In this document: in pieces, positions 6,558 through 19,505 of the stretch
Layout: every line of letters starts with the position of its first letter
Numbering within the stretch: position 1 is the first letter of the stretch
Origin: Candidatus Hodarchaeota archaeon
GTDB taxonomy: Archaea > Asgardarchaeota > Heimdallarchaeia > Hodarchaeales > Hodarchaeaceae
Direction of reading: 5' to 3'
Assembly: GCA_016840035.1 (NCBI GenBank)
Contig: JAEOTC010000092.1
Span: forward strand, 1-39,010
DNA length: 39,010 nt
Translations under genes and position numbers: made by a program
The notes under the pieces: generated by a model
The model's input: the letters and a program-made list of their open reading frames with translations, nothing else
Told to the model about the DNA's origin: nothing
Databases searched by the model: none

Positions 6558-7106
6558 ATGGATTATACGGAGAAAGCTAAATACCACATGAAAGTGATAG
6601 TATGTGGTACAGGGGCAGTCGGAAAAACTAGTCTTGTTCGCAGATTTGTTGAAAATAAATTCGATTTTAACTATTTACTCACCATCGGAATGGAACCCTC
6701 AAATCGTAAATTACAGGTGAATGGTTTTTTAGTAAATTTAATTATTTTTGATGTTGCAGGACAGGAACGTTTTCAAACTTTGAGAGAAGTTTTCTTCCGG
6801 AAAGCGAATGGAGCATTACTTGTATTCGATTTAACTCGGCCTGATTCTCTTGAAGAGTTATACGAATGGAAGGCCCAAATTGATGAACGGTTAGGAAAGA
6901 ATAAGATCCCTCTTGTTTTGATTGGAAATAAAGCTGATCTCGAGGATATGATCCAAATCGATTATCAAGTCTTAGAAGACACTGTTATTCCTGATTTTCA
7001 GCCTGTGAAATATTTAGAAACCTCAGCCTATCAGAATCATAATGTACATGAGGCATTTTCAATAATTTCTAATGAGGTACTGAAACGGCAAGGGATTATA
7101 AAATAA
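6558..7106 (+). CDS. Rab-like small GTPase (Ras superfamily)
   Basis: G1 GTGAVGKT, G2 LTIG, G3 DVAGQERF, G4 NKAD, G5 ETSA; no C-terminal Cys prenylation motif. Confidence 0.93.
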   Translation: MDYTEKAKYHMKVIVCGTGAVGKTSLVRRFVENKFDFNYLLTIGMEPSNRKLQVNGFLVNLIIFDVAGQERFQTLREVFFRKANGALLVFDLTRPDSLEELYEWKAQIDERLGKNKIPLVLIGNKADLEDMIQIDYQVLEDTVIPDFQPVKYLETSAYQNHNVHEAFSIISNEVLKRQGIIK

Positions 7107-7976: not shown

Positions 7977-9074
7977 TTATTCCACCCCAAAGCTCTCGTA
8001 CACCAACCGTTTACCTCCTTTAGCAAAAGTATCGGTATTAATATACGACATGGATGCAAGAGATTCTGCAAATTCACGTATGAATCCTGTTGTGAAGCGT
8101 TTTAATGCCCCTCGTAGGAAAAATGTTGTTTGGGGTGTAAGAATCAAGGAAAGAACCTGATTTTTCCGTTCAAGAACTAATTGATTTCCCTCAAGGTTCA
8201 CCTCCGAGATGTCAGCTGTTGACTTAGTAGCCTCTTGCATAAGTGAGGTAATTGCTACAATACCACCTGCAAACAATGCTTCATCAAGAGACTCATCATC
8301 GGCTTTAAAGTCATATGAAAAGAGAGGAACACCAGTTTCATGAATTACTAAGATACGATCGGCTTGATGACGATTAAAGACTGCAAAATTATCACGACTC
8401 CCAAAAGAAATGAAATATAGAATAAAACCAATTGCTACATCTGCACGCAAGAGAATTGTAAACACCATGGAATTTAATGATATAGCAATAGGTTTGAACA
8501 TAAAGGGAACCATATATGCAATAATAATTCCTATGATCATATACTTCAACTGCTTCTTCTGAATTGCCCATGCATCATTGTAACCCTTCCATAAGCTTAA
8601 AATTATGAGTAAACTACCCATCCCAGGTAAGAAAAAGGTTAGAAAATCTGTTAATGGATCAAATGATACGATAAACATATCTAACATAGGATGGTAGGTT
8701 GTTACGAATTCTCCCAACAGAATCGCTACCATTGTCCCACCTAAAAACAATGTATGTACCATTTGTTTCCAAGTAAAGATGGTATCATATTCAAACGCCT
8801 CAAAGAAGTATAATAGGAAACAAACAGACAACATAGAACTTATTATAGACAATTTAGATATTAGAACTAAGAATGATTTATCAGAAATAAACATTGCGAT
8901 TAAACCTGAGCCATCCGCAAATAGTAAGGCAATCAATGCCATTAAAAATAGAGTTAATGTTTTGGCATTATATTTTATCCACCGTTTGGACAGACTAAGG
9001 ACGATTATAATTTCAGCCGACACACATAAAACAGCAATCGTCAATGTTATTATTAAATCAGGTGTAAGGATCAT
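7977..9074 (-). CDS. Seven-TM membrane protein fused to a C-terminal longin-like domain
   Basis: Seven hydrophobic helices in the first ~225 aa; the C-terminal ~125 aa follow a beta-beta-alpha-beta-beta-beta-alpha pattern (RILVIHETGVPLFSYDF / DEALFAGGIVAITSLMQE / ISEVNLEGNQLVLERKNQVLSLILT / LRGALKRFTTGF). Confidence 0.72.
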   Translation of the reverse strand: MILTPDLIITLTIAVLCVSAEIIIVLSLSKRWIKYNAKTLTLFLMALIALLFADGSGLIAMFISDKSFLVLISKLSIISSMLSVCFLLYFFEAFEYDTIFTWKQMVHTLFLGGTMVAILLGEFVTTYHPMLDMFIVSFDPLTDFLTFFLPGMGSLLIILSLWKGYNDAWAIQKKQLKYMIIGIIIAYMVPFMFKPIAISLNSMVFTILLRADVAIGFILYFISFGSRDNFAVFNRHQADRILVIHETGVPLFSYDFKADDESLDEALFAGGIVAITSLMQEATKSTADISEVNLEGNQLVLERKNQVLSLILTPQTTFFLRGALKRFTTGFIREFAESLASMSYINTDTFAKGGKRLVYESFGVE

Positions 9075-9240
9075 TTGGAATCCTCGCTAATCTCTAGATT
9101 TCTCCCTTTATATTTCTCTCTTGAATTTAGATAAGAAAATTTGTCTTACTATCCGTTTTTAGTAAATTTATCAATCGAATCAAAAGAAATTTTGAACTAA
9201 TATTTGAAAACACCATAGGAATGAGCATTTACTAGACTCT

Positions 9241-10116
9241 TCAACCCAGATCCTTGTCAAAATGAAATTCCTTTAAATTTTGGCTATTAATTAAGTTCGG
9301 AGGAATAGAAATCAGTTGATTATTCCTGATATCAAGATACCATAGTTTTTTCAAGGATTGAACACTTTCAGGAAGAAATGAAATCTGATTATTTTGCAAA
9401 TAGAGGATTTCAAGATCCTTCATATTCCCAATAGATTCCAATACAGTAAAAAGGGAATTATTGTTCAAATTCAAGCGAATAAGATTGGGTAATCCAGATT
9501 CCCACTGAGGAAACCTCTCTAGTTGGTTGTAACTCATATCTAATTTTTCAAGCTTCTCTAAAGCTCTAAATTGGGTTGGTAAAGAATGTATTTGATTTTC
9601 TCTCAAATCTAAGACTTCAAGGTTCTTTAGGTATCCAATATTTGGGGGGAGTGATTTGATTTTATTAAATCGTAGAAACAACCGCTTTAAATAATAAAGA
9701 CTGCAAATTTCAGGCGGTAAAGAGGTTAAATCTTCATCGGATAAATTTAAGCTAATAATATGTCCCCCTTCAACCTCAACACAAGTTTCAAAGAATTTAT
9801 TACGGTTTTCGTTATCCATTTTCGAAACTAACCGTATTAATATGCTTAACTCCTTTTCATCTAGAGTGGGAAATTTTTTGGTAATATAGTCAGAATTAGA
9901 GAATGGATCATTAACAACGTGAGTTTTCCTTGATCCTCTCGTAATAGGTTTTCCTCTCAGAAATAACAAGGGTAAAGCTATTAATAAATTGAGTATTCTT
10001 ATCAATGTTAACTGAATTATGGGTTTTCTCCATAGAATGATTCCAAGACCCAAACAGAATACTATGAATAAGTAGAGAATATACACATCATTTGCAAAGA
10101 GTGTTTGTTCAATCAA
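9241..10116 (-). CDS. Membrane-anchored leucine-rich repeat protein (7 x 23-aa LRR)
   Basis: N-terminal hydrophobic segments, cap CVEVEGGHIISLNLS, then LxLxxNxLxxLPxxIxxLxxL repeats; TTG start. Confidence 0.9.
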   Translation of the reverse strand: MIEQTLFANDVYILYLFIVFCLGLGIILWRKPIIQLTLIRILNLLIALPLLFLRGKPITRGSRKTHVVNDPFSNSDYITKKFPTLDEKELSILIRLVSKMDNENRNKFFETCVEVEGGHIISLNLSDEDLTSLPPEICSLYYLKRLFLRFNKIKSLPPNIGYLKNLEVLDLRENQIHSLPTQFRALEKLEKLDMSYNQLERFPQWESGLPNLIRLNLNNNSLFTVLESIGNMKDLEILYLQNNQISFLPESVQSLKKLWYLDIRNNQLISIPPNLINSQNLKEFHFDKDLG

Positions 10117-10142
10117 TTACATTATCCATCCTTTTATTTACT

Positions 10143-11297
10143 TCAATCCTCATAAGTAAATTCCTTTAAGTTTGGGAGAGAAGTAATTGATTTTGATAAG
10201 GAAATTATCTGATTACCCCTAATATCTAAGTATTGGAGCTTTGTTAAATTCTCTATACTCTCAGGAAGAAATGATAAATTGTTTTGACTCAAATCAAGAA
10301 CGATGAGATTCTTTAATAAACCAATTGAATTTAAAATTGTTGTCAATCGATTTTTACTTAGATCTAGATTCGTAAGAGAGGGCATTTCTTGTGTCCATGA
10401 AGGAAAAGATTCTAACTTATTGGCACTCAGATCTAGATTTTTTAAGTTGGAGAGGGTTCCAAGTGACTGATTGATAGATTCCAATTGATTTTCACCAAGG
10501 TCAAGTCGTTCAAGATCCTTTAAATACTGGATTTTTGATGGGAGAGTTGTAATTCTATTTGACCGTAGATTAAGTACTTTTAAAAAGCGAAAATCGGACA
10601 AATCACTAGGAAAAGACGTTAATTTCTTTTCAGAAAGATCTAGAATAACAATTCTTCCCTGCTCAGTTTCTACACACTCTTTACAGAAAGATTCATATTC
10701 TTTCATATTTAATTGAGTAACAAGTCGGGCTAACATTTCTCCCTCTTCAGTGGTTAACGAGGGAATAATTTTTCTAATGGTTTTAGATTTAATAACACCT
10801 TTACCTTCAATCGTTTTGTAACGGAATCCTTCTTGATATAATTCATCTTTTGAGAGAAATTTCGACTCGAATGCTAAAAACATAACTACTTTATATGCTG
10901 GATATGTTATAATTATTAGAAGTGACAAGAGAATATAAATAATAATGACAAATGGACCATCTTTTTTTAAATCATCTTTGAACTCCTGCGTTGTGAAAAT
11001 TGGCGCCCAAAAAGATGTGAATATTTCTTTATGGAAATAAGGTTTAAACATACAAAAAAAGTACAACACCCATCCTATTGTTCCAACTATTAGTCCAATG
11101 ATGATAATTACTGGAGTTCCTTCAAGAAATAGTTGGAGAATTCCCCCCCCAGCGATCATTCCAAAAAATAAAAAGACTAAGAGTATTAGATAGACTATGA
11201 ATATAATATAGGATATTAATCCAAGAAATTCAAGAGAAGTATACTTAGTATAATTCACCTTTTGATTCCTAACAATCATAACTTCGGATACTGACAT
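10143..11297 (-). CDS. Membrane-anchored leucine-rich repeat protein (about 3 TM + 7 x 23-aa LRR); paralog of the downstream gene
   Basis: Three hydrophobic segments, cap CVETEQGRIVILDLS, seven LRRs; GGAGG SD-like motif upstream of ATG. Confidence 0.9.
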   Translation of the reverse strand: MSVSEVMIVRNQKVNYTKYTSLEFLGLISYIIFIVYLILLVFLFFGMIAGGGILQLFLEGTPVIIIIGLIVGTIGWVLYFFCMFKPYFHKEIFTSFWAPIFTTQEFKDDLKKDGPFVIIIYILLSLLIIITYPAYKVVMFLAFESKFLSKDELYQEGFRYKTIEGKGVIKSKTIRKIIPSLTTEEGEMLARLVTQLNMKEYESFCKECVETEQGRIVILDLSEKKLTSFPSDLSDFRFLKVLNLRSNRITTLPSKIQYLKDLERLDLGENQLESINQSLGTLSNLKNLDLSANKLESFPSWTQEMPSLTNLDLSKNRLTTILNSIGLLKNLIVLDLSQNNLSFLPESIENLTKLQYLDIRGNQIISLSKSITSLPNLKEFTYED

Positions 11298-11337
11298 TAA
11301 GACTCCTCCATACTATTTTTTCATTACAAATGTATTG

Positions 11338-12960
11338 TTAACTTCCTGTACTACCGACGATCCAATTTCTGTGGCCACAATAGGGACAATCAGGAATATC
11401 TTTCTGTTCAACCTGTCTTAATTCCTCAAACTCAATTTCATGAACTCCTCTTAAACAACGAGAACAGAATTTTGATTCATGAATTCTAATCTTGGTACCA
11501 GAGAGCATAGAATAAGCACTAATCACTCCTCTAAGCATGGAGCTTTGGGACTTGTGAAGGACTTGTGATGCTTTTTCTGTTTGAGTAACCAGCACTCCAA
11601 GCGAAAAGAAAAAGCCCATGATTATTAGAAGCTCAATATTGATGAAATTATTGGACTGATCGATTTCCATTAAGTAGATGTATCCAAAAGCTGCAAATAA
11701 TCCTAAAAAGTGTAAATTTTTCCATAAGGTTTTACTTAATCTTTCAATTGACCCAAGAAGGCCGAAAACGGTTGTATGAAAAAATTTTCCTAAGCTTTTA
11801 CGAGCAATTCTGAGAAAATCACGGAATCGGGACCTGAAGTTACGAATTCCACTACCAATCGACCTAAAGAATCCTATAACTAAATTTTTCCCAAATCCGA
11901 GTAATGTCTTTAAAGCTTCACGGTACTGGTAATTTCTAGCATACTCAATGAACATAATACCAAGATCTATGAGTTTTGTATCATAATCTGTCCATCTTAA
12001 GGATACACCGATGATCACGAGAACTATTCCGACTCCATCAATCAGAACTGTTGTGAATAAATCAATTTGCTCAAGAAATACATAAACTAGCAATGGCCCG
12101 AAGATTAGAACTACTCCTATGTAAGAGATTATTGCACCCAGAGCACTCCAATCTGAGTATTGTCTCCATCGTAAAACATCCAAGATGAACCCAAATAAGA
12201 GAAATAAAAATGCTAAGACAATTAACCCGATAGCAGCTCTTTCTGCTGCAATTTTAAGTACAATAGAAACAAGTACTAAAATGAAGAAACCTAGACCAAT
12301 TAACGTCAGTCGGGAAAATGATATAATATCCGACCATTCTAGATGCATCTCTCTAATAGATCTTCGTGATGTCTTTTCAAATTGTAACTCTGCTGGTTCT
12401 TGTATTTGGGGTTTAGGAACAGAAAGACTATAAGTTTTCGCAATTAATGGTGTTTTCTCTTGGATTACTCCACTGGGTTTAGATTTAGATTCAATTGGAT
12501 GGGATGGAACTGAGGAACCACAATTGTTACAAAATTTCATTGAACTTGAGGCAAGTTTGTTACCACAATTATTACAATGCGATTCTGCAATACCTTTGCT
12601 CTCAATTCTTCCGATTTCCTTTTCTTCAAATGGTGGTTGCATCCCCCTCGATTCTGCGATTTTATCATGTAATGTTATCGTTTGTTCCGGCTTTTCCTGT
12701 TCTTCAACTTTTGCTTTCGACGTTATTTCAGAAGAATACTCTAAATCTCTGTCGCCTATCTCTTCCCCTGTTTTCTTCTCTAAGAAATTTTTGTATCTCT
12801 CCAAAATTGCAGCAAATACTGCGTCTGTGATTTCAGATTTCTCATATTGATCTTTTTGTCGAATAAACCAAGTTTGCCACTCATTCACTTCTTTATCTGT
12901 CTTAGCTAGCTCGGATCCGATATTTATGAGAGCTTCTTGTAATTTTTGGCTCTTTTTCAT
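11338..12960 (-). CDS. Membrane protein with N-terminal helical/SHOCT-like segment, internal zinc ribbon, ~6 TM, amphipathic helices and C-terminal zinc ribbon
   Basis: CNNCG...CNNCG and CSRC...CPYCG Cys pairs; hydrophobic block from ~aa 215; start overlaps the upstream stop (TAATG at 12958-12962). Confidence 0.8.
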   Translation of the reverse strand: MKKSQKLQEALINIGSELAKTDKEVNEWQTWFIRQKDQYEKSEITDAVFAAILERYKNFLEKKTGEEIGDRDLEYSSEITSKAKVEEQEKPEQTITLHDKIAESRGMQPPFEEKEIGRIESKGIAESHCNNCGNKLASSSMKFCNNCGSSVPSHPIESKSKPSGVIQEKTPLIAKTYSLSVPKPQIQEPAELQFEKTSRRSIREMHLEWSDIISFSRLTLIGLGFFILVLVSIVLKIAAERAAIGLIVLAFLFLLFGFILDVLRWRQYSDWSALGAIISYIGVVLIFGPLLVYVFLEQIDLFTTVLIDGVGIVLVIIGVSLRWTDYDTKLIDLGIMFIEYARNYQYREALKTLLGFGKNLVIGFFRSIGSGIRNFRSRFRDFLRIARKSLGKFFHTTVFGLLGSIERLSKTLWKNLHFLGLFAAFGYIYLMEIDQSNNFINIELLIIMGFFFSLGVLVTQTEKASQVLHKSQSSMLRGVISAYSMLSGTKIRIHESKFCSRCLRGVHEIEFEELRQVEQKDIPDCPYCGHRNWIVGSTGS

Positions 12961-15900
12961 TATTTACCACCTTTCTGAATTCTATCTCCTTCCTCAGTTG
13001 ATGAATCACCGAATCTTTTCTGTAGGTTTGATATTTTTAATGAATCGCGGGAGAAGTATGTAATGAAAGGAATAACTACTCCTACAATTATAAAAATGAG
13101 GCCTAAAAGTAAAAGGACAATTACTGGATCATTAGCGAAAATACCAATTAGATTCTCAACCTCTCGGACAGGAATCCCTTGAAGAATTGATGCAAATAAC
13201 CATAAAATGTCCCCTATCAGCGGAATTGGGTAGATAACAGTCTTTGTCCATGCCCCCTTATCATCAAGAAGGCCTGAAACCACTAGAATGACTCCATACC
13301 CAAAAGCTGTAACTCCTAGGGTTACAATAGCAATGTAAATTATTGAATCAAGAATTGCTCCAAATAAATTTAATAATTGCTCTGCAATTCGAGAACTAAA
13401 TGATATTATCGCCCCAATGGCTTTAAGAATTGCTTGAATGGTCAAATCTACCATCTTTCGAATTTCTTCACTCCAAGCTGCTATAAGGAAGATACTTCCA
13501 AATATGAGACAGGGAAGATAGATCCAAATTTCACCATTACTTAGGAGTACAGCTAGACCGATCAGTTCTAGAATAACACCGGTGATCGTTACGGCCATTT
13601 TACGGATGGTATATCGTAAACTCCAAATATAATGGAAATAATTTATTATTCCCTCTTTTATAGCTCCCACAACTTCCCTGATGAAATTCCCAAATGAAAT
13701 GAATGTGCTTCCAATTGCTTTAACTGTTTGGTTGATAAAACTATGCACTTGGGGGTACCATACCAAGTAGAGAAGTAAAAATCCAAGAATTAAGAAGAAA
13801 TTCAGACCTAGGATGACTATTGGGTTAACAGAATAAACAGAGGTTACTATAAGTATAATTCCAGTGACGGTCATAACTGCTCTAAATATAGCTTCTCGAA
13901 TTTTCCAAACATAGACGAAGAAATCGTAAATTGCTCGCTTAATGGCACTCCCAGTATCCCAAAGAAATCTAAGAAATGAAATAAAGGCATCTCTTATTGC
14001 CAAGATGGTCTGGATTATTAACTGATTGATTTCTTTTCTCCAAGCTGCATAAATCAATCCTATTCCTAATAGGGAAAGCAAAACCTGTCCAGCTAGTCCA
14101 AGAGTGGGAGTGAATATTCCATAAAAGATTGAAATCGGTCCTGCAATAGACATCCCCGCGCGTAGGATGGATAATCGATACAACCACAAATACTTTCCAA
14201 AAGCAATCACACTGGCTTTGATCGAATTTCCGATATCAATAAAGAAGCGAACGAATGCTTTCAATCCATCTATAATGGTGGAAACAAGTTTTACAACGAA
14301 ATCATTGATCGGAGTTCTCCAGGGAATGTAAAAGATAACTATTCCAGCGCCAAAGAAACCTCCACGGAGAATTATATCTAAGGAGGGATAAAATAATCCA
14401 AAAAATATGAAAACAGGCCCTGCAATTGTCATTCCAGCCCGTAAAATCGCGATTCGGATTAACCAGAGATAATGTCCAAAAGCGATAACATTGTCTTTGA
14501 TTGCTTTTCCGAGATCCTGTAGGTAACGAAGGAACGATTTCAGCTCCTTGTTAATAGAGGAAGCAAGGCTCACAAAGAAAGCATTAATTGGGATTCTCCA
14601 GGCAAGATAAAAGATGATAATTCCGCACCCGAATACAAGAGGTTGAATCCAAGGTCCTAATGAAGGAGAAATTACCGCAAATGTTGAGGCTAGAATTCCT
14701 ACAACTGTCATAATTCCCCTGACTATATTTTCACGAATTGACCAGATATAGCTAAGGGTATCAACAAAAGCTTGTTTTATCGCTCTTCCTGTATTCCATA
14801 TAAAATGTCCAAATTGAATAAAACTATTATTGATCAGAGATATCCAAGCAAGGTAAATCAATCCAATTCCAAAAATGATTAGGAAATAGCGAAATTCTAG
14901 CTCTAGAAAACTTGAAATTGATGATAATGAAAAAATAATAAGACTCCAACCTGAAAGTGTTAGAATCCCTCTAGCAATCGCAATACGAATGCTCCACAAA
15001 TATCTAACCATAGAAATAAATGATTGAATTGTACTATTCACAAAATTATTTATTTCCTTGAAGAATACACGATAGACAACTAATAATCCTACCCCTGCAT
15101 GAAGTGTCCGAAAAGCCACATTCATATCATTTAATGAATGTAATGCTGTTTCAGGATAGAAAATGCCAAGTAGAACTAGTACAACACCTAATAGAAATCC
15201 CAGTAAGAAAATTCGACGCAGTAATTGGTCACTAAATCTCTGATAATCAGTGGGGACTCTGAAAAGATACAGATCCAAGTAAAGAATTGTAAGAGAAAGA
15301 GTTCCAAAAAGAATTGAAACAAATAAGACTTCTAGACTATAATCATGACCTTGTATCAGGAGGGAGTCGAGAGCAGAAAGCATCATATAGAGTAGTAAAA
15401 ACTCGCAGAAGATTAATTCAAAGGTTCTAATAATATGGGCTTTATTATCCCAGAGTAATGTTGAAATTTCTTTGTACCAAGTAACCAAAAGTAGAGCGGA
15501 ACCAATTCCCACAGCCCAGAATCCGTTTATACCACGAGGCCAGTAAAATATTACCAACACACCAAGATTTACGAAAAAAAACCCTAATCCTGTTACAGAA
15601 TATTTGATTATTTTCCAAAAATTAAATCTCACAATATATATCAGTATTTGATCTAGTTGCGTTACCTCTAAGAAAAAGCCCAATGTAGTTAAAAGAAGAC
15701 CGATTAATAACAGAGAGTTTAGAATGGAAGAGAAATTTATTATTATAGGAAAGACTTCCTCTAATACTAGATCACAACTACAGGGTACTGCAGTGAGGAA
15801 TAACCCTGAGAATCCAATCAAACCTCCAATATTAGTCAGTTTGTTTCTTTTAACATTTATATAACGTAATTGTAAGAATCCTATAACTAAACCTAATAAA

Positions 15901-16100
15901 AATATTCCTAAAAGGATTAAAATGACTCCAAGTGTTAGCTCATCATATATCTCTAGTAAAGTGTTCTCGAGTATTTTTAAAACAAAAAGCAAAAGGATAC
16001 CGATGGAAGCTACTCGAACCAATATCCTAATTTGCGATTCCCAATCTCTCACGTCAGGTGGAGAAAATTCATCAACGGAGCTAGATTTAGATTTAATCAT
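12960..16100 (-). CDS. Large polytopic membrane protein built from ~93-aa TM-hairpin + amphipathic-helix repeats
   Basis: 1046-aa ORF; recurring Y[LIV]WxxRxxIxRxxxTxxG...Yx[AP]WxxxIN units. Confidence 0.8.
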   Translation of the reverse strand: MIKSKSSSVDEFSPPDVRDWESQIRILVRVASIGILLLFVLKILENTLLEIYDELTLGVILILLGIFLLGLVIGFLQLRYINVKRNKLTNIGGLIGFSGLFLTAVPCSCDLVLEEVFPIIINFSSILNSLLLIGLLLTTLGFFLEVTQLDQILIYIVRFNFWKIIKYSVTGLGFFFVNLGVLVIFYWPRGINGFWAVGIGSALLLVTWYKEISTLLWDNKAHIIRTFELIFCEFLLLYMMLSALDSLLIQGHDYSLEVLFVSILFGTLSLTILYLDLYLFRVPTDYQRFSDQLLRRIFLLGFLLGVVLVLLGIFYPETALHSLNDMNVAFRTLHAGVGLLVVYRVFFKEINNFVNSTIQSFISMVRYLWSIRIAIARGILTLSGWSLIIFSLSSISSFLELEFRYFLIIFGIGLIYLAWISLINNSFIQFGHFIWNTGRAIKQAFVDTLSYIWSIRENIVRGIMTVVGILASTFAVISPSLGPWIQPLVFGCGIIIFYLAWRIPINAFFVSLASSINKELKSFLRYLQDLGKAIKDNVIAFGHYLWLIRIAILRAGMTIAGPVFIFFGLFYPSLDIILRGGFFGAGIVIFYIPWRTPINDFVVKLVSTIIDGLKAFVRFFIDIGNSIKASVIAFGKYLWLYRLSILRAGMSIAGPISIFYGIFTPTLGLAGQVLLSLLGIGLIYAAWRKEINQLIIQTILAIRDAFISFLRFLWDTGSAIKRAIYDFFVYVWKIREAIFRAVMTVTGIILIVTSVYSVNPIVILGLNFFLILGFLLLYLVWYPQVHSFINQTVKAIGSTFISFGNFIREVVGAIKEGIINYFHYIWSLRYTIRKMAVTITGVILELIGLAVLLSNGEIWIYLPCLIFGSIFLIAAWSEEIRKMVDLTIQAILKAIGAIISFSSRIAEQLLNLFGAILDSIIYIAIVTLGVTAFGYGVILVVSGLLDDKGAWTKTVIYPIPLIGDILWLFASILQGIPVREVENLIGIFANDPVIVLLLLGLIFIIVGVVIPFITYFSRDSLKISNLQKRFGDSSTEEGDRIQKGGK
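13350..15002 (-). repeat. Six protein-level tandem repeats (spacings 84, 93, 93, 93, 94 aa)
   Basis: Unit starts YLWSIR (aa 367), YIWSIR (451), YLWLIR (544), YLWLYR (637), YVWKIR (730), YIWSLR (824); diverged at DNA level. Confidence 0.85.
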
Positions 16101-16362
16101 CTTGTGATTCGACTCCCTTAATCAATTTTTGTCTATTTACAAAATCGCTGAACTTCTTAGCAAGATAGAATTCAGGAATAATGCCAATAATGGAAAATAT
16201 GATTAAAATTGAAACATCCTCAACATTATATTCATCAATTCCATGAGAATTATTCGTTTCACTACTCACATAAGGTGTATTACTCAAAATAATTACACAG
16301 ATGCCAATAATAATTATAAGACGTTTTTTCAGACCTAAATGAGCTCCATTGTATTGCTTCAT
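16093..16362 (-). CDS. Small membrane protein (signal-peptide-like N-terminus plus one C-terminal TM); first gene of the membrane operon
   Basis: KKRLIIIIGICVIILSNTPYVSS, acidic spacer, VSILIIFSIIGIIPEFYL; stop overlaps the next start by 8 nt; GGTGA upstream of ATG. Confidence 0.65.
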   Translation of the reverse strand: MKQYNGAHLGLKKRLIIIIGICVIILSNTPYVSSETNNSHGIDEYNVEDVSILIIFSIIGIIPEFYLAKKFSDFVNRQKLIKGVESQDD

Positions 16363-16562
16363 GAAATTTCACCGAATAAATGTAATCCGCAAATTAAGGC
16401 ATATAAGGCCTAATTAAGTTTTCTTAGAACGATTACTTTGTGTGACAAACAATGAGAAATTCACATCTCAATAATTATAAGAGGAAAGGTTAGTTCGAGA
16501 ACGTGAAATAATTTGTAGTATTTCATTAATTTGGGAATAATCAATCTGGAAATTGGATCTCT

Positions 16563-16856
16563 ATGAACGATTCTGTCAATATACATCTATATGGACCAGT
16601 GAAATTTCAATTTAGCCCTAAAGCAAAATTATCAGAAGAAACGATCATAGAAATACCTTTTGTGTTCAATGAAACGGTTGAACATCTATTACAACGATTA
16701 AATTTATCAGATTCGGATTATGGGGAGTGCTTCATTAACCATTCCATTGTAAAAAATGTTTCTGATCTTATTCCTAGAAATGCTAGAGTAGCAATATTTT
16801 CCCATGGAATGCTCTTAATTGATGGTGGTCTTTACATCAAAAAATGGAAGCATTAA
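16563..16856 (+). CDS. MoaD/ThiS-fold (beta-grasp) protein with internal GG and C-terminal extension
   Basis: VNIHLYG...ETVEHLLQRLNL...CFINH...ARVAIF matches the MoaD pattern; ends SHGMLLIDGG-LYIKKWKH. Confidence 0.75.
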   Translation: MNDSVNIHLYGPVKFQFSPKAKLSEETIIEIPFVFNETVEHLLQRLNLSDSDYGECFINHSIVKNVSDLIPRNARVAIFSHGMLLIDGGLYIKKWKH

Positions 16857-16890
16857 TCAAAGGACGCGAAAAATAGAGGATTGAATTATC

Positions 16891-17232
16891 ATGATTGATG
16901 TCCATATCTATGGATTAATAAAAAAGAAGTTCGATCCAAATGCCTCCCTTGGGGACAATATGATTATTAAGTTAAACCATCATGATGGTTTACTCCTTCA
17001 AGACGTGTTCAAGGAACTTGATCTCTCCCAGGAGGATTGTGGTGATTGTTTCGTTAATGGGAAGGTAATTAAGCGAGATGAAAACCCCGAAATCAAGGAT
17101 AATTCTCGCGTAGCCATTTTTTCAGAAGGAATGTATCTTCTGTGTGGGGGGCAGCACTTGAAAGGACATGGATTCATTACTCGTTCTGCTCCTAAAGATT
17201 ACGACTACTTTCACTTGTCATCAGGTGAGTAA
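16891..17232 (+). CDS. MoaD/ThiS-fold protein with internal CGG and long His/aromatic-rich extension; paralog of the previous gene
   Basis: IDVHIYG...LQDVFKELDL...CFVNGK...IKDNSRVAIF; ends SEGMYLLCGG-QHLKGHGFITRSAPKDYDYFHLSSGE. Confidence 0.78.
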   Translation: MIDVHIYGLIKKKFDPNASLGDNMIIKLNHHDGLLLQDVFKELDLSQEDCGDCFVNGKVIKRDENPEIKDNSRVAIFSEGMYLLCGGQHLKGHGFITRSAPKDYDYFHLSSGE

Positions 17233-17481
17233 TTGACCAATATTAAAGTAAAACTATTTGCTACTTTAAGAGATCGGGGACCAGAGGGAATAGCTATTGG
17301 TGAGTCATTTTCTTTGACATTAGAACCAGAAACAAATTTTCATCAGTTATTGCAACAATTAAAAATTACTAGGGATGAAGCGAAGATCATTATGAGAAAT
17401 CATATTACCATCAAATCCCTAGATGAACTCTTGCAGGAAAATGACGAAATTGCAATATTTCCTCCCATAGGAGGAGGTTGA
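17233..17481 (+). CDS. moaD: Canonical MoaD/SAMP-type sulfur carrier protein
   Basis: IKVKLFATLR...LQENDEIAIFPPIGGG-stop; TTG start directly after the previous stop with AGGTGA SD; adjacent to AOR. Confidence 0.88.
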   Translation: MTNIKVKLFATLRDRGPEGIAIGESFSLTLEPETNFHQLLQQLKITRDEAKIIMRNHITIKSLDELLQENDEIAIFPPIGGG

Positions 17482-17607
17482 TTTAGACTTAATTCGAATA
17501 TCACTATAATTCCATGTTTCATTTTATCGATACTCTCCTGAATATGATTTAATTTGTACAAGTTCCATATAGACTCCATATTGTAACTCTTTTTTCCTCC
17601 AAAGATC

Positions 17608-17619
17608 GAAAGGTTTAAA
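17608..17619 (+). promoter_or_regulatory. Probable BRE/TATA promoter of aor
   Basis: GAAAGG-TTTAAA (purine-rich BRE followed by TATA box) about 110 nt upstream of the likely ATG. Confidence 0.5.
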
Positions 17620-17726
17620 CTCCTCGACAGTTCTAACCTCGAACAACTTCCAAAGAGCCTCTTGAGGTAGAATTGGAAAACACTCATTTCAAGGTAATTT
17701 TCTAAAAATATCAATCGGTGGTAATA

Positions 17727-19505
17727 ATGCCTCAAATATTAAGAGTTAATATGTCGGATATGACGACAAAATTTGAAGAATTTCCTGAAAAATATAAAAA
17801 GCTCGGTGGCAGAGCATTAACCTCCACAATGGTTTTTGATGAAGTTCCCCCTACATGTGAACCCCTAGGTCCATTAAATAAAGTTATAATCGCTCCAGGG
17901 ATAGTAACAGGTACGAATGCACCTAGTTCGGGTCGCTTAAGCGTAGGTGGAAAATCTCCATTAACTGGAGGAATAAAAGAAGCTAATGCAGGTGGATTAA
18001 CTGCACAGAAAATAGCAAAGTTAGGCCTAAAAGCAGTAGTTCTAGAAGGGCAACCAAAATCGAAAGACAAGTGGTTTAATATTGTTATAAAGAAAGGTAC
18101 AGCAGAAATTGTTGATGCGAATGACTTTGCTGGTATGGGACTCTATGAACTTATAGGAAAAGTCTGGGAGAAATATCCAAGTAAGCCAGGTATTATTGGT
18201 TGTGGTATTGCAGGACAAAAATTAATGCGTTCCGCAGGCGTTTTCGGTAATAACGTGGAAAATAACGATCCTGGAAGATATGCAGGTCGTGGTGGTCTTG
18301 GTGCAGTAATTGGTTCCAAAAGAATCATTGCAATCATAACAGATGATACGGATGGTGAGCGTCCAGCTGCAGTAAATAAAGAATTGTACGATGAAGGGCG
18401 AAAGAAGCTCGTTGCAGCTCTCAATGAACATGCTGTTACTGGAGTGCTAGAAAAGGATGGGAAACCCTACGGAGGTCTCAAAAATTACGGCACCAATGTC
18501 CTTCAAAATATTATTAATGAAGCAGGAGCTTTACCAGCCAGAAACTGGCGTGAAGGTCGTTTTGACGGTGCAGCCAAGATATCTGGAGAAGCTACCCATG
18601 AGCTTGTAGATAAAGTGAAAGCTAAGTTCCCTGATAGTCCCGCTCAGTATGCACATGCATGTCATCCTGGTTGTATCATAAAATGCTCTAATGTTGTTCC
18701 CTACGAGGATACTGGAAAACTACAAGTCTCTCCTCTCGAATATGAAACTGCTTGGGCGCTTGGAACGAATTGTGGGATCGATAGTCACTTTCATGTGTCT
18801 GAACTCAATCGTGTTTGTAACGATCTAGGTCTAGATACTATAGAAGCTGGGAATACAATTGCCGTTGCTATGGAAGCAGGATTACTGAATTTTGGTGATG
18901 GACCAGCAGCTGTTAATTTTTTAAAGAAAGTCGGTTCTGATTCACCAATGGGGAATTTAATTGGTTTAGGGGCATTAGGATTGGGTCAGGCATTTGGGGT
19001 TACTCATGTTGCTCATTGTAAAGGTCAATCGCTCCCTGCTTATGATCCACGACCAATTAGAGGAATTGGAGTTACATACGCTACAGGACCACAAGGAGGA
19101 GACCACACTCAGGGTTACACTATCGCTCCTGAAATTCTTCAGGTCGGTGGAACTCCTGATAGAATGGATGTGAACAAAGCTGAATTATCCAGAGCTTTTC
19201 AAGCAACTACTGCATTCATTGACTCAACAGGCTACTGTTTATTTATTGCTTTTGCTATCCTCGATATAGCTTCTGGTTCCGAAGGTATGGTTCAATCTAT
19301 TCAAGGGTTTTTAGGCGATACGTCTATTGATGCAGTTGCATATGGAATGGATGTTCTCAAGAAGGAAAGAGAATTCAATAAGAAAGCTGGGTTTACTAAA
19401 GTCGACGATCGACTTCCAGAATTCTTCCAAACTGAACCCCTTCCCCCCCACAACGTGGTATTCGAAGTTTCTGATGAAGAATTAGATAAAGTCTTTGAAA
19501 ATTAA
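17727..19505 (+). CDS. aor: Tungsten-dependent aldehyde:ferredoxin oxidoreductase family protein
   Basis: KSPLTGGIKEANAGG, GRGGLGAVIGSK, [4Fe-4S] ligands CHPGCIIKC and distal GYCLF, EYET, DLGLDTI; ATG 17727 (GGTGG SD at 17717-17721) preferred over GTG 17718. Confidence 0.95.
   Translation: MPQILRVNMSDMTTKFEEFPEKYKKLGGRALTSTMVFDEVPPTCEPLGPLNKVIIAPGIVTGTNAPSSGRLSVGGKSPLTGGIKEANAGGLTAQKIAKLGLKAVVLEGQPKSKDKWFNIVIKKGTAEIVDANDFAGMGLYELIGKVWEKYPSKPGIIGCGIAGQKLMRSAGVFGNNVENNDPGRYAGRGGLGAVIGSKRIIAIITDDTDGERPAAVNKELYDEGRKKLVAALNEHAVTGVLEKDGKPYGGLKNYGTNVLQNIINEAGALPARNWREGRFDGAAKISGEATHELVDKVKAKFPDSPAQYAHACHPGCIIKCSNVVPYEDTGKLQVSPLEYETAWALGTNCGIDSHFHVSELNRVCNDLGLDTIEAGNTIAVAMEAGLLNFGDGPAAVNFLKKVGSDSPMGNLIGLGALGLGQAFGVTHVAHCKGQSLPAYDPRPIRGIGVTYATGPQGGDHTQGYTIAPEILQVGGTPDRMDVNKAELSRAFQATTAFIDSTGYCLFIAFAILDIASGSEGMVQSIQGFLGDTSIDAVAYGMDVLKKEREFNKKAGFTKVDDRLPEFFQTEPLPPHNVVFEVSDEELDKVFEN

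Follow-up and report, generated by a model that had tools for sequence, protein, structure and literature searches.

In the PGF-CTERM/archaeosortase and PEP-CTERM/exosortase systems, unrelated surface proteins carry a short conserved C-terminal transmembrane (TM) signature together with a basic tail. Reticulon and REEP (DP1/Yop1) proteins shape membranes by short double hairpins and oligomerisation, with the short hydrophobic hairpins and amphipathic helices thought to wedge into one leaflet and the multiplicity provided by oligomers (PMC9804665). Here we describe a locus that recalls both designs, a cluster of five genes (g1 to g5) on a 39,010-nucleotide (nt) stretch of contig JAEOTC010000092.1 (positions 1 to 39,010, the whole of which is hereafter called the window), from an archaeon that the names on database matches place in Candidatus Hodarchaeales (Heimdallarchaeia). 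At its core lie three translationally coupled genes for membrane proteins, a conserved module that resembles no described system and has so far been seen in Hodarchaeales alone. Functionally, we posit that the three proteins make up a complex for surface recognition or adhesion, in which the ligand-binding head can be exchanged and a hairpin-repeat protein serves as the platform, and to which two leucine-rich repeat (LRR) genes would be an addition, a reading to which we give somewhat less than an even chance. Little is known of how membranes and surfaces are organised in Hodarchaeales, which count among the archaea placed closest to eukaryotes; a trio with no detectable relative outside the group, and with swappable glycan-binding heads on its surface subunit, is a testable candidate for lineage-specific surface recognition or membrane organisation.

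The five open reading frames (ORFs), all on the minus strand at 9241-16362, are packed as the sequence-only reading had described them, with an 8-nt overlap between g1 and g2, a 1-nt overlap (TAATG) between g2 and g3, gaps of 40 nt (g3-g4) and 26 nt (g4-g5), and a Shine-Dalgarno (SD)-like motif at each start (GGTGA, GGGAG, GGTGG, GGAGG and GGATGGA from g1 to g5, the last weaker). All five products contain hydrophobic segments (Kyte-Doolittle), and searches of Pfam, NCBIfam and PADLOC assigned none of them to a family of enzymes, transporters or defence proteins, in agreement with the earlier statement that the cluster matches no known system; the sole family matches are LRR models for g4 and g5 and near-threshold zinc-ribbon models for g3 (Pfam, NCBIfam). 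PADLOC-DB v2 returned zero families for g1-g5 or the neighbouring gene g6 at E<=0.01, and the proposal of a defence system was accordingly abandoned. The cluster and its candidate promoter are arranged as follows.

16363-16430, minus strand: candidate promoter and 5' leader of the cluster, read from the sequence, with AT-rich TTATAT and TTAATT at 35-50 nt, and GGTGA at 8 nt, ahead of the g1 ATG
16093-16362, minus strand: g1, 89 amino acids (aa)
12960-16100, minus strand: g2, 1046 aa
11338-12960, minus strand: g3, 540 aa
10143-11297, minus strand: g4, 384 aa
9241-10116, minus strand: g5, 291 aa, TTG start

Scans for sigma-70 promoters and intrinsic terminators use bacterial models and are uninformative for an archaeon.

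The conserved unit emerged from a sample of 40 related genomes (21 of the same GTDB genus and 19 from other families) and from 13 related loci, ten of them from sampled genomes and three from metagenome contigs. Gene g2 was present in 13/21 same-genus genomes and in 0/19 other-family genomes, and g3 was single-copy per genome across the 40 genomes, occurring in 12/13 relatives with g2, while a further three had fragments of it at contig ends. In 13/13 loci a g2 homolog (1011-1762 aa) was directly followed by a g3 homolog (375-1412 aa), with a junction overlap of 1 or 4 nt in ten of these, and the gene upstream of g2 (hereafter gene A, represented in the window by g1) bore a conserved C-terminal anchor and overlapped g2 by 4 nt in 9/13, a tenth anchor-bearing copy lying on a contig fragment (G015, L021). 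LRR genes stood beside the g2-g3 pair in none of the 13 loci, the colinear sister genome included. The synteny check that the sequence-only reading had proposed across Asgard genomes therefore divides its five-gene membrane complex: the coupling of g1-g3 holds up and the linkage of the LRR genes does not. The conserved unit is thus three genes rather than five, and the unit of annotation is corrected to a three-gene module with the LRR genes as a local addition. Conserved coupling of g1-g3 fits a co-produced membrane assembly, and it is from this coupling, the dedicated conserved anchor and the co-occurrence of the genes that we infer that the three proteins assemble.

Evolutionarily, the module behaves as a fast-evolving island. 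Gene order in the sister genome G002 (the aldehyde:ferredoxin oxidoreductase (AOR) gene, three ThiS-like genes, a 681-aa beta-helix gene, g2, g3, g6, YjeF_N, a Ras-like GTPase and more) follows that of the colinear window and departs from it in two respects, namely that the 681-aa beta-helix gene takes the place of the 89-aa g1, and that g3 and g6 are 231 nt apart, versus 2263 nt holding g4 and g5 in the window. Identity to G002 is 44% for g2 and 46% for g3, whereas 11 flanking genes show 66-92%, and it is this far greater divergence of g2 and g3 than of the flanking proteins that suggests rapid evolution of the module. Together with heads that are gained, swapped and lost, it points to selection from partners, viruses or substrates. 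Searched against 1.84 billion representative proteins, a profile of the g2 repeat (described below) retrieved 53, and all the named strong matches that were looked up came from Hodarchaeales or Heimdall LC_3; the g3 profile retrieved seven clusters, all named ones being from Hodarchaeales. A literature search found no paper describing the g2/g3 family.

The protein encoded by g1 begins with a segment resembling a signal peptide, continues with ~20 exposed residues and ends in a conserved anchor (IIPEFYLAKKFS...GVE). This predicted type-I membrane protein is the headless version of the surface proteins encoded upstream of g2 in relatives, which alters the functional picture of the cluster. Residues 39-87 of g1 align to the very anchor that forms the C-terminus of the relatives' proteins, with P63, E64, G83 and V84 invariant (alignment A6). 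The relatives' anchor-bearing proteins are 415-903 aa long (six at 438-714 aa), have a signal-peptide-like start wherever the N-terminus was inspected, and carry extracellular heads that vary from locus to locus: Beta_helix/NosD, Laminin_G_3 with fn3, Lectin_C, Lectin_C with NosD, and F5_F8_type_C (discoidin). Their C-terminal end is conserved as (I/V)DN-PPPxD-TM-IIPE(L/F/V)Y(L/I)G(K/R)(K/R)(F/L)S...EGVE. In the window's g1 the head has shrunk from several hundred residues to ~20, an in-frame deletion that kept the stalk, the anchor and the signal-peptide-like segment. The terminal EGVE codons (window 16096-16110; L011-L016, L043, L044) read GAAGGAGTNGAA and contain the GGAG of the g2 ribosome-binding site, because of which they are under a double constraint, from the protein tail and from translational coupling to g2.

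As in the CTERM systems, the g1-type anchor is a short TM signature with a basic tail, and its PE motif is superficially reminiscent of theirs. The motif, however, lies at the cytosolic end of the helix and not before it, the anchor occurs once per genome whereas sorting signals mark many cargoes, no sortase-like protease is encoded, and no CTERM model matched (NCBIfam). A six-frame scan of the window's genome (87% complete) found exactly one copy of the anchor, and this uniqueness argues for a dedicated partner of g2 and g3 over a general sorting signal. Two candidates were set aside on these grounds: the anchor as a general sorting signal, by its one copy per genome, and membership among the archaeosortase/exosortase cargoes (PGF-, PEF- and PEP-CTERM), by the position of the motif, the single copy and the lack of an NCBIfam CTERM match. 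A likeness of another kind is to eukaryote-like type-I receptors or adhesins, in which a lectin, beta-helix or fn3 ectodomain is carried by one TM helix whose cytosolic tail is short and conserved and, as at this locus, is co-encoded with polytopic and cytosol-facing partners; the likeness is one of architecture only, since no homology of the membrane parts was found and the module has no kinase or GTPase domain.

Structurally, g2 is a giant, predicted hairpin-repeat protein with three parts.

15003-16100, minus strand: g2 N-terminal polytopic domain, aa 1-366, ~8 hydrophobic helices, 36-50% identity over ~aa 5-415 in relatives
13353-15002, minus strand: g2 repeat array, aa 367-916, six tandem ~93-aa units
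12960-13352, minus strand: g2 C-terminal membrane domain, aa 917-1046, 35-41% identity over aa 885-1040 in relatives, stop codon overlapping the g3 start

The N- and C-terminal domains are the best-matching parts of g2 in relatives. Each repeat unit runs from a Y[ILV]WxxR anchor through a short TM hairpin and W(R/K)xxIN to a 40-aa amphipathic helix; in anatomical terms, a basic interfacial helix is followed by two hydrophobic helices of ~14-18 residues joined by a loop of 2-6 residues, then by a conserved Trp and a helix of ~40 residues, the hydrophobic moment of which is 0.50-0.73 versus a shuffle mean of 0.40. A hidden Markov model (HMM) built from 43 repeats of 11 homologs detected at least six units, and up to ~12, in every g2 homolog, with an i-E per g2 repeat of 1e-19 to 3e-29. 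The AlphaFold2 (AF2) model of g2 is all-helical and of low confidence (predicted local distance difference test (pLDDT) 58, predicted template modelling score (pTM) 0.25), no Pfam family was assigned and no sequence relation to reticulon or REEP was found, and a search of Protein Data Bank (PDB) sequences with the repeat profile gave nothing relevant. One g2 homolog, that of G014 (L013:2453-7288, G014:C1), is split by a single in-frame TAA into ORFs of 146 and 1454 aa, which marks either a broken gene or a sequencing error.

This anatomy invites the alternative that g2 is first of all a membrane-shaping scaffold, bending or stabilising the membrane (for example in protrusions) by reticulon-like wedge hairpins and in-plane amphipathic helices, with the head and the zinc-ribbon protein g3 as accessories. 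The six to at least 12 repeats of short hairpins, each with helices of ~14-18 residues and a short outer loop and each followed by a strongly amphipathic helix, are what such a scaffold might look like, with multiplicity reached by tandem repeats where reticulon and REEP use oligomers, though this likeness takes its topology from hydropathy. The differences are several: g2 has no sequence similarity to these proteins and falls in neither the RHD nor the TB2/DP1/HVA22 family (Pfam), it would hold at least six hairpins in one chain that also has a large TM domain at either end, its partners by coupling are a surface protein and a zinc-ribbon protein, and it would be a protein of the archaeal cytoplasmic membrane, not of the endoplasmic reticulum. 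The curvature scaffold that the sequence-only reading proposed would accordingly draw on a shared design of short hairpins and amphipathic helices, in a protein with no reticulon or REEP homology. A scaffold of this kind would, moreover, leave unexplained both the coupling of g2 to a variable head (lectin or beta-helix) that has an anchor dedicated to it and the much faster divergence of g2 and g3 than of their neighbours, and the low confidence of the g2 model also counts against it. We therefore regard membrane shaping as the main role of g2 as unlikely.

The third gene of the module, g3, encodes a predicted zinc-ribbon membrane protein, again with three recognisable parts.

12769-12960, minus strand: g3 N-terminal three-helix module, aa 1-64, 'EWxxWFxRQ', pLDDT 82-96
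12511-12579, minus strand: g3 first zinc ribbon, aa 128-150, CNNCG...CNNCG, in a disordered linker, position not conserved in relatives (alignment A1)
11362-12333, minus strand: g3 conserved core, aa 210-533, TM helices, amphipathic helices and C4 ribbon, pLDDT 70-88

The core contains 43 invariant columns (alignment A1) and the motifs D(V/I)LRWR..(E/D)W(G/S)ALGA in the TM helices, W.N.HW.GL, and FCSRCLRG...CP(F/Y)CG..W in the C4 ribbon, whose C-terminal CxxC...CPxC is invariant in 11/11 homologs. Pfam recognises the N-terminal ribbon only (Zn_Ribbon_1 and Zn_ribbon_3, 22.2 bits versus a 25-bit cut-off; Zn_Ribbon_1 E 1.2e-4, below the curated cut-off). The N-terminal module is homologous to modules that are repeated in the C-terminal tails of homologs of 745-1412 aa (BLASTP E 2e-12 and 7e-9 against L018), most of these long tails ending in a zinc ribbon. 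Since the cytosolic modules are N-terminal in the window and C-terminal in the long homologs, both ends of the g3 TM core would face the cytoplasm. The long homologs (L016-L019) also carry three to seven tandem cytosolic tail repeats of ~46 aa, FPDY.SY.RAQ.LGA..YSEL..I....APD.ETA.KI, with no Pfam family. Foldseek found nothing for g3 in the PDB at E<=0.001, a wide VIA-align search returned nothing more specific than three-helix bundles and helical hairpins (best Z 8.4), and a PDB sequence search with the g3 profile found nothing. The sequence-only reading had counted g2 and g3 as one of two pairs of paralogs, the other being g4 and g5; that other pair is borne out below, whereas paralogy of g2 and g3 was rejected as unsupported (BLASTP E 1.7; hhalign probability 14.7%; the repeat HMM misses every g3 homolog at E<=10 with filters off), and the two proteins seem to have just a general design in common. 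A complex prediction that combined the g1 anchor, g2 aa 1-365 and g3 aa 205-540 scored 0.09 (mark 0.32), which speaks neither for nor against binding.

Taken as a recognition or adhesion complex, the module could work as follows. Gene A would encode a single-pass surface protein whose head is swapped freely between lineages while the proline-rich stalk, the TM anchor (IIPE-x-Y-x-G) and the basic tail are conserved. The product of g2, with its N-terminal TM domain, at least six copies of the 93-aa hairpin/helix unit and its C-terminal TM domain, may form an extended in-membrane platform on which the conserved anchor docks the variable head outside, and the TM protein g3, by its cytosolic C4 zinc ribbon and shuffled helical modules, could link this platform to cytosolic partners. 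In this genome, where the head has been deleted in frame and g1 retains the signal-peptide-like segment, stalk and anchor, a tandem TM-anchored LRR pair has been inserted after g3, probably on the same transcript, and may supply new, probably cytosolic, protein-binding subunits. The recognition or adhesion function is suggested by the lectin and beta-helix heads and by the fast evolution. Several points weigh against it. Four of the 13 loci (L017-L019, L042) have no anchor-bearing upstream gene, which means that some lineages dispense with the head subunit or replace it; the headless g1 might be a sign that the module is decaying in this genome; the hairpin geometry and topology of g2 derive from hydropathy only, the AF2 model being of low confidence; LRR genes are abundant, with dozens of candidates per genome, and their adjacency to the module could be incidental; and it is ambiguous which way the LRR domains face, as the positive-inside rule favours the cytoplasm for g5 and leaves g4 undecided.

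The recognition complex can be extended into a bolder picture, in which a chain of reticulon-like wedges forms a curved or extended platform, swappable lectin or beta-helix adhesin heads stand outside, a zinc-finger adaptor with RING-like distant relatives reaches the cytosol, and the TM-LRR pair is a newly recruited recognition set. If true, this would be an archaeal organiser of adhesion and membrane shape, specific to Hodarchaeales and with plug-in recognition subunits; we consider the full combination quite unlikely.

A different account of the same locus is that the module is decaying here: the head deletion would have inactivated it and left g1 as a remnant, and the LRR pair, unrelated to the module, would have been inserted where the locus is dispensable. 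The reduction of the head from several hundred residues to ~20 could be read in this way, as could the failure to find the module in 8/21 of the closest sampled genomes (same GTDB genus) and the in-frame TAA in the G014 g2. Yet g1 retains an intact frame, a signal-peptide-like start, all conserved anchor residues and its SD motif, and neither g2 (1046 aa) nor g3 (540 aa) is interrupted or lacks any of the family-invariant residues, which makes decay very unlikely.

Downstream of g3 lie the two LRR genes. Gene g4 encodes ~3 TM segments, a short helical pre-LRR region and ~7 LRRs, and g5 ~2 TM segments, a pre-LRR region and ~7 LRRs. The two are paralogs, as the sequence-only reading had it, with 43% identity over 228 aa (E 9e-51), a similarity that covers the pre-LRR region and the ~7 LRRs and not the membrane anchors. 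Their place in the LRR superfamily is secure (LRR_8 92.7 and 83.6 bits for g4 and g5 against a cut-off of 27, E 1e-26 and 8e-24; LRR_4 68.6 and 89.6 bits). Residues 1-215 of g4 found no relative among 5.8 billion proteins, g4 was specific to this genome among those searched, and the many LRR matches in related genomes are at other positions and cover nothing of g4 but its LRR part. In their ~7 canonical 23-residue LRRs, g4 and g5 resemble the membrane-tethered or Roco-type LRR proteins of Asgard archaea and bacteria, and the nearest LRR domains in relatives are 35-45% identical to theirs, one of them in a Ras/Roc GTPase fusion; they differ in having no GTPase, kinase, NB-ARC or E3 domain and in having TM anchors that are orphans. 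The LRR families of type III effectors (XopAC, XopL, XopAE, SspH2) matched the LRR region only, at 19-85 bits versus cut-offs of 450-1243 (NCBIfam), and both these families and the internalins were rejected, since neither gave a full-length match that reached the NCBIfam cut-off. A cytosolic position of the LRR domains is probable, given the positive-inside rule (g5), the lack of a signal peptide and the one LRR relative that is fused to a Ras/Roc GTPase. Several oligo-T runs follow the g5 stop and none follows the g3 or g4 stop, from which co-transcription of the LRR pair with the module seems probable. The G+C content dips to 31% at 9001-11000, over the LRR genes, the lowest value in the window, versus 35-37% on either side. 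This low value is consistent with a young or inserted segment. No mobile-element signature was found around the insertion: apart from the LRR periodicity, it is flanked by neither direct nor inverted repeats. The best reading of g4 and g5 is that of a lineage-specific addition inserted downstream of g3.

Such an addition differs from what the sequence-only reading had proposed, namely that the five proteins are stoichiometric subunits of one machine (a scaffold, an adaptor with a zinc finger and a pair of LRR subunits for recognition) for remodelling, sensing or antiviral defence. Tight spacing, the absence of oligo-T runs until after g5 and an SD-like motif at each start would suit that machine, and in one distant genome (G030) an LRR gene adjoins a pair distantly related to g2 and g3. 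Against it stand the 0/13 related loci with LRR genes beside g2-g3, even in the colinear sister, the orphan membrane half of g4 and the lack of any PADLOC match; chance adjacency is plausible given how abundant LRR genes are, and G026, whose locus is the closest relative of that in G030, has no LRR gene there. A five-subunit machine is, in our estimation, highly doubtful.

The distant pair just mentioned deserves a short description. Other Heimdall families have more remote g3-like proteins (E 8e-19 to 8e-12 on the TM core), and there (L046:10991-14073, L047:8682-11815, L048:3300-4511) a polytopic protein of 603-622 aa, whose C-terminus resembles that of g2, is coupled by 4 nt to a g3-like protein of ~420 aa; in G030 an LRR protein divergently adjoins this pair. 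The distant g3-like proteins end in zinc ribbons and a RING-H2-like pattern, CxHxxxFHxxHxxxW...CPxC, which scores below the Pfam cut-off. The idea that g3 is the effector of a zinc-finger or RING-related system, marking or recruiting cytosolic proteins at the membrane with g2 as its platform, takes its appeal from these tails and from their 4-nt coupling to the g2-like protein, but has only a slight chance of being right, in that the RING matches fall below the Pfam cut-offs (E 4e-4 and 3e-3; zf-RING_2 18-21 bits versus 27.3), Hodarchaeales g3 has a plain C4 ribbon only, the module has no linked genes of E1- or E2-like type, and the ThiS-like genes adjoin AOR and were seen at this position only in the sister G002, L043 having an EamA gene there. 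Membership of the window's g3 among RING-H2 E3 ligases was likewise rejected, the protein having only a C4 ribbon and no C3H2C3 pattern above the Pfam cut-off.

Beyond the cluster, on its downstream side, lies one further membrane protein gene.

7977-9074, minus strand: g6, membrane protein of 365 aa with ~7 hydrophobic helices and a soluble C-terminal domain of ~140 aa

A conserved TATA-like element (CTTATTTTAAAT) lies ~55 nt upstream of the g6 start, and by virtue of this element of its own g6 is predicted to be a separate transcription unit. Its identity is 81-85% in three close relatives and 60% in L043, its linkage to the module is found only in the closest relatives, and its C-terminal domain has no Pfam match. 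On the other side of the cluster, three tandem ThiS/MoaD-like small genes followed by AOR occupy 16563-19505 on the plus strand, with 66-92% identity in G002; this block is probably tied to the tungstopterin cofactor and not to the membrane module. A small GTPase of the Ras/Roc family (6558-7106, plus strand; Pfam Ras E 3.5e-43) is kept two genes downstream of the module in close relatives.

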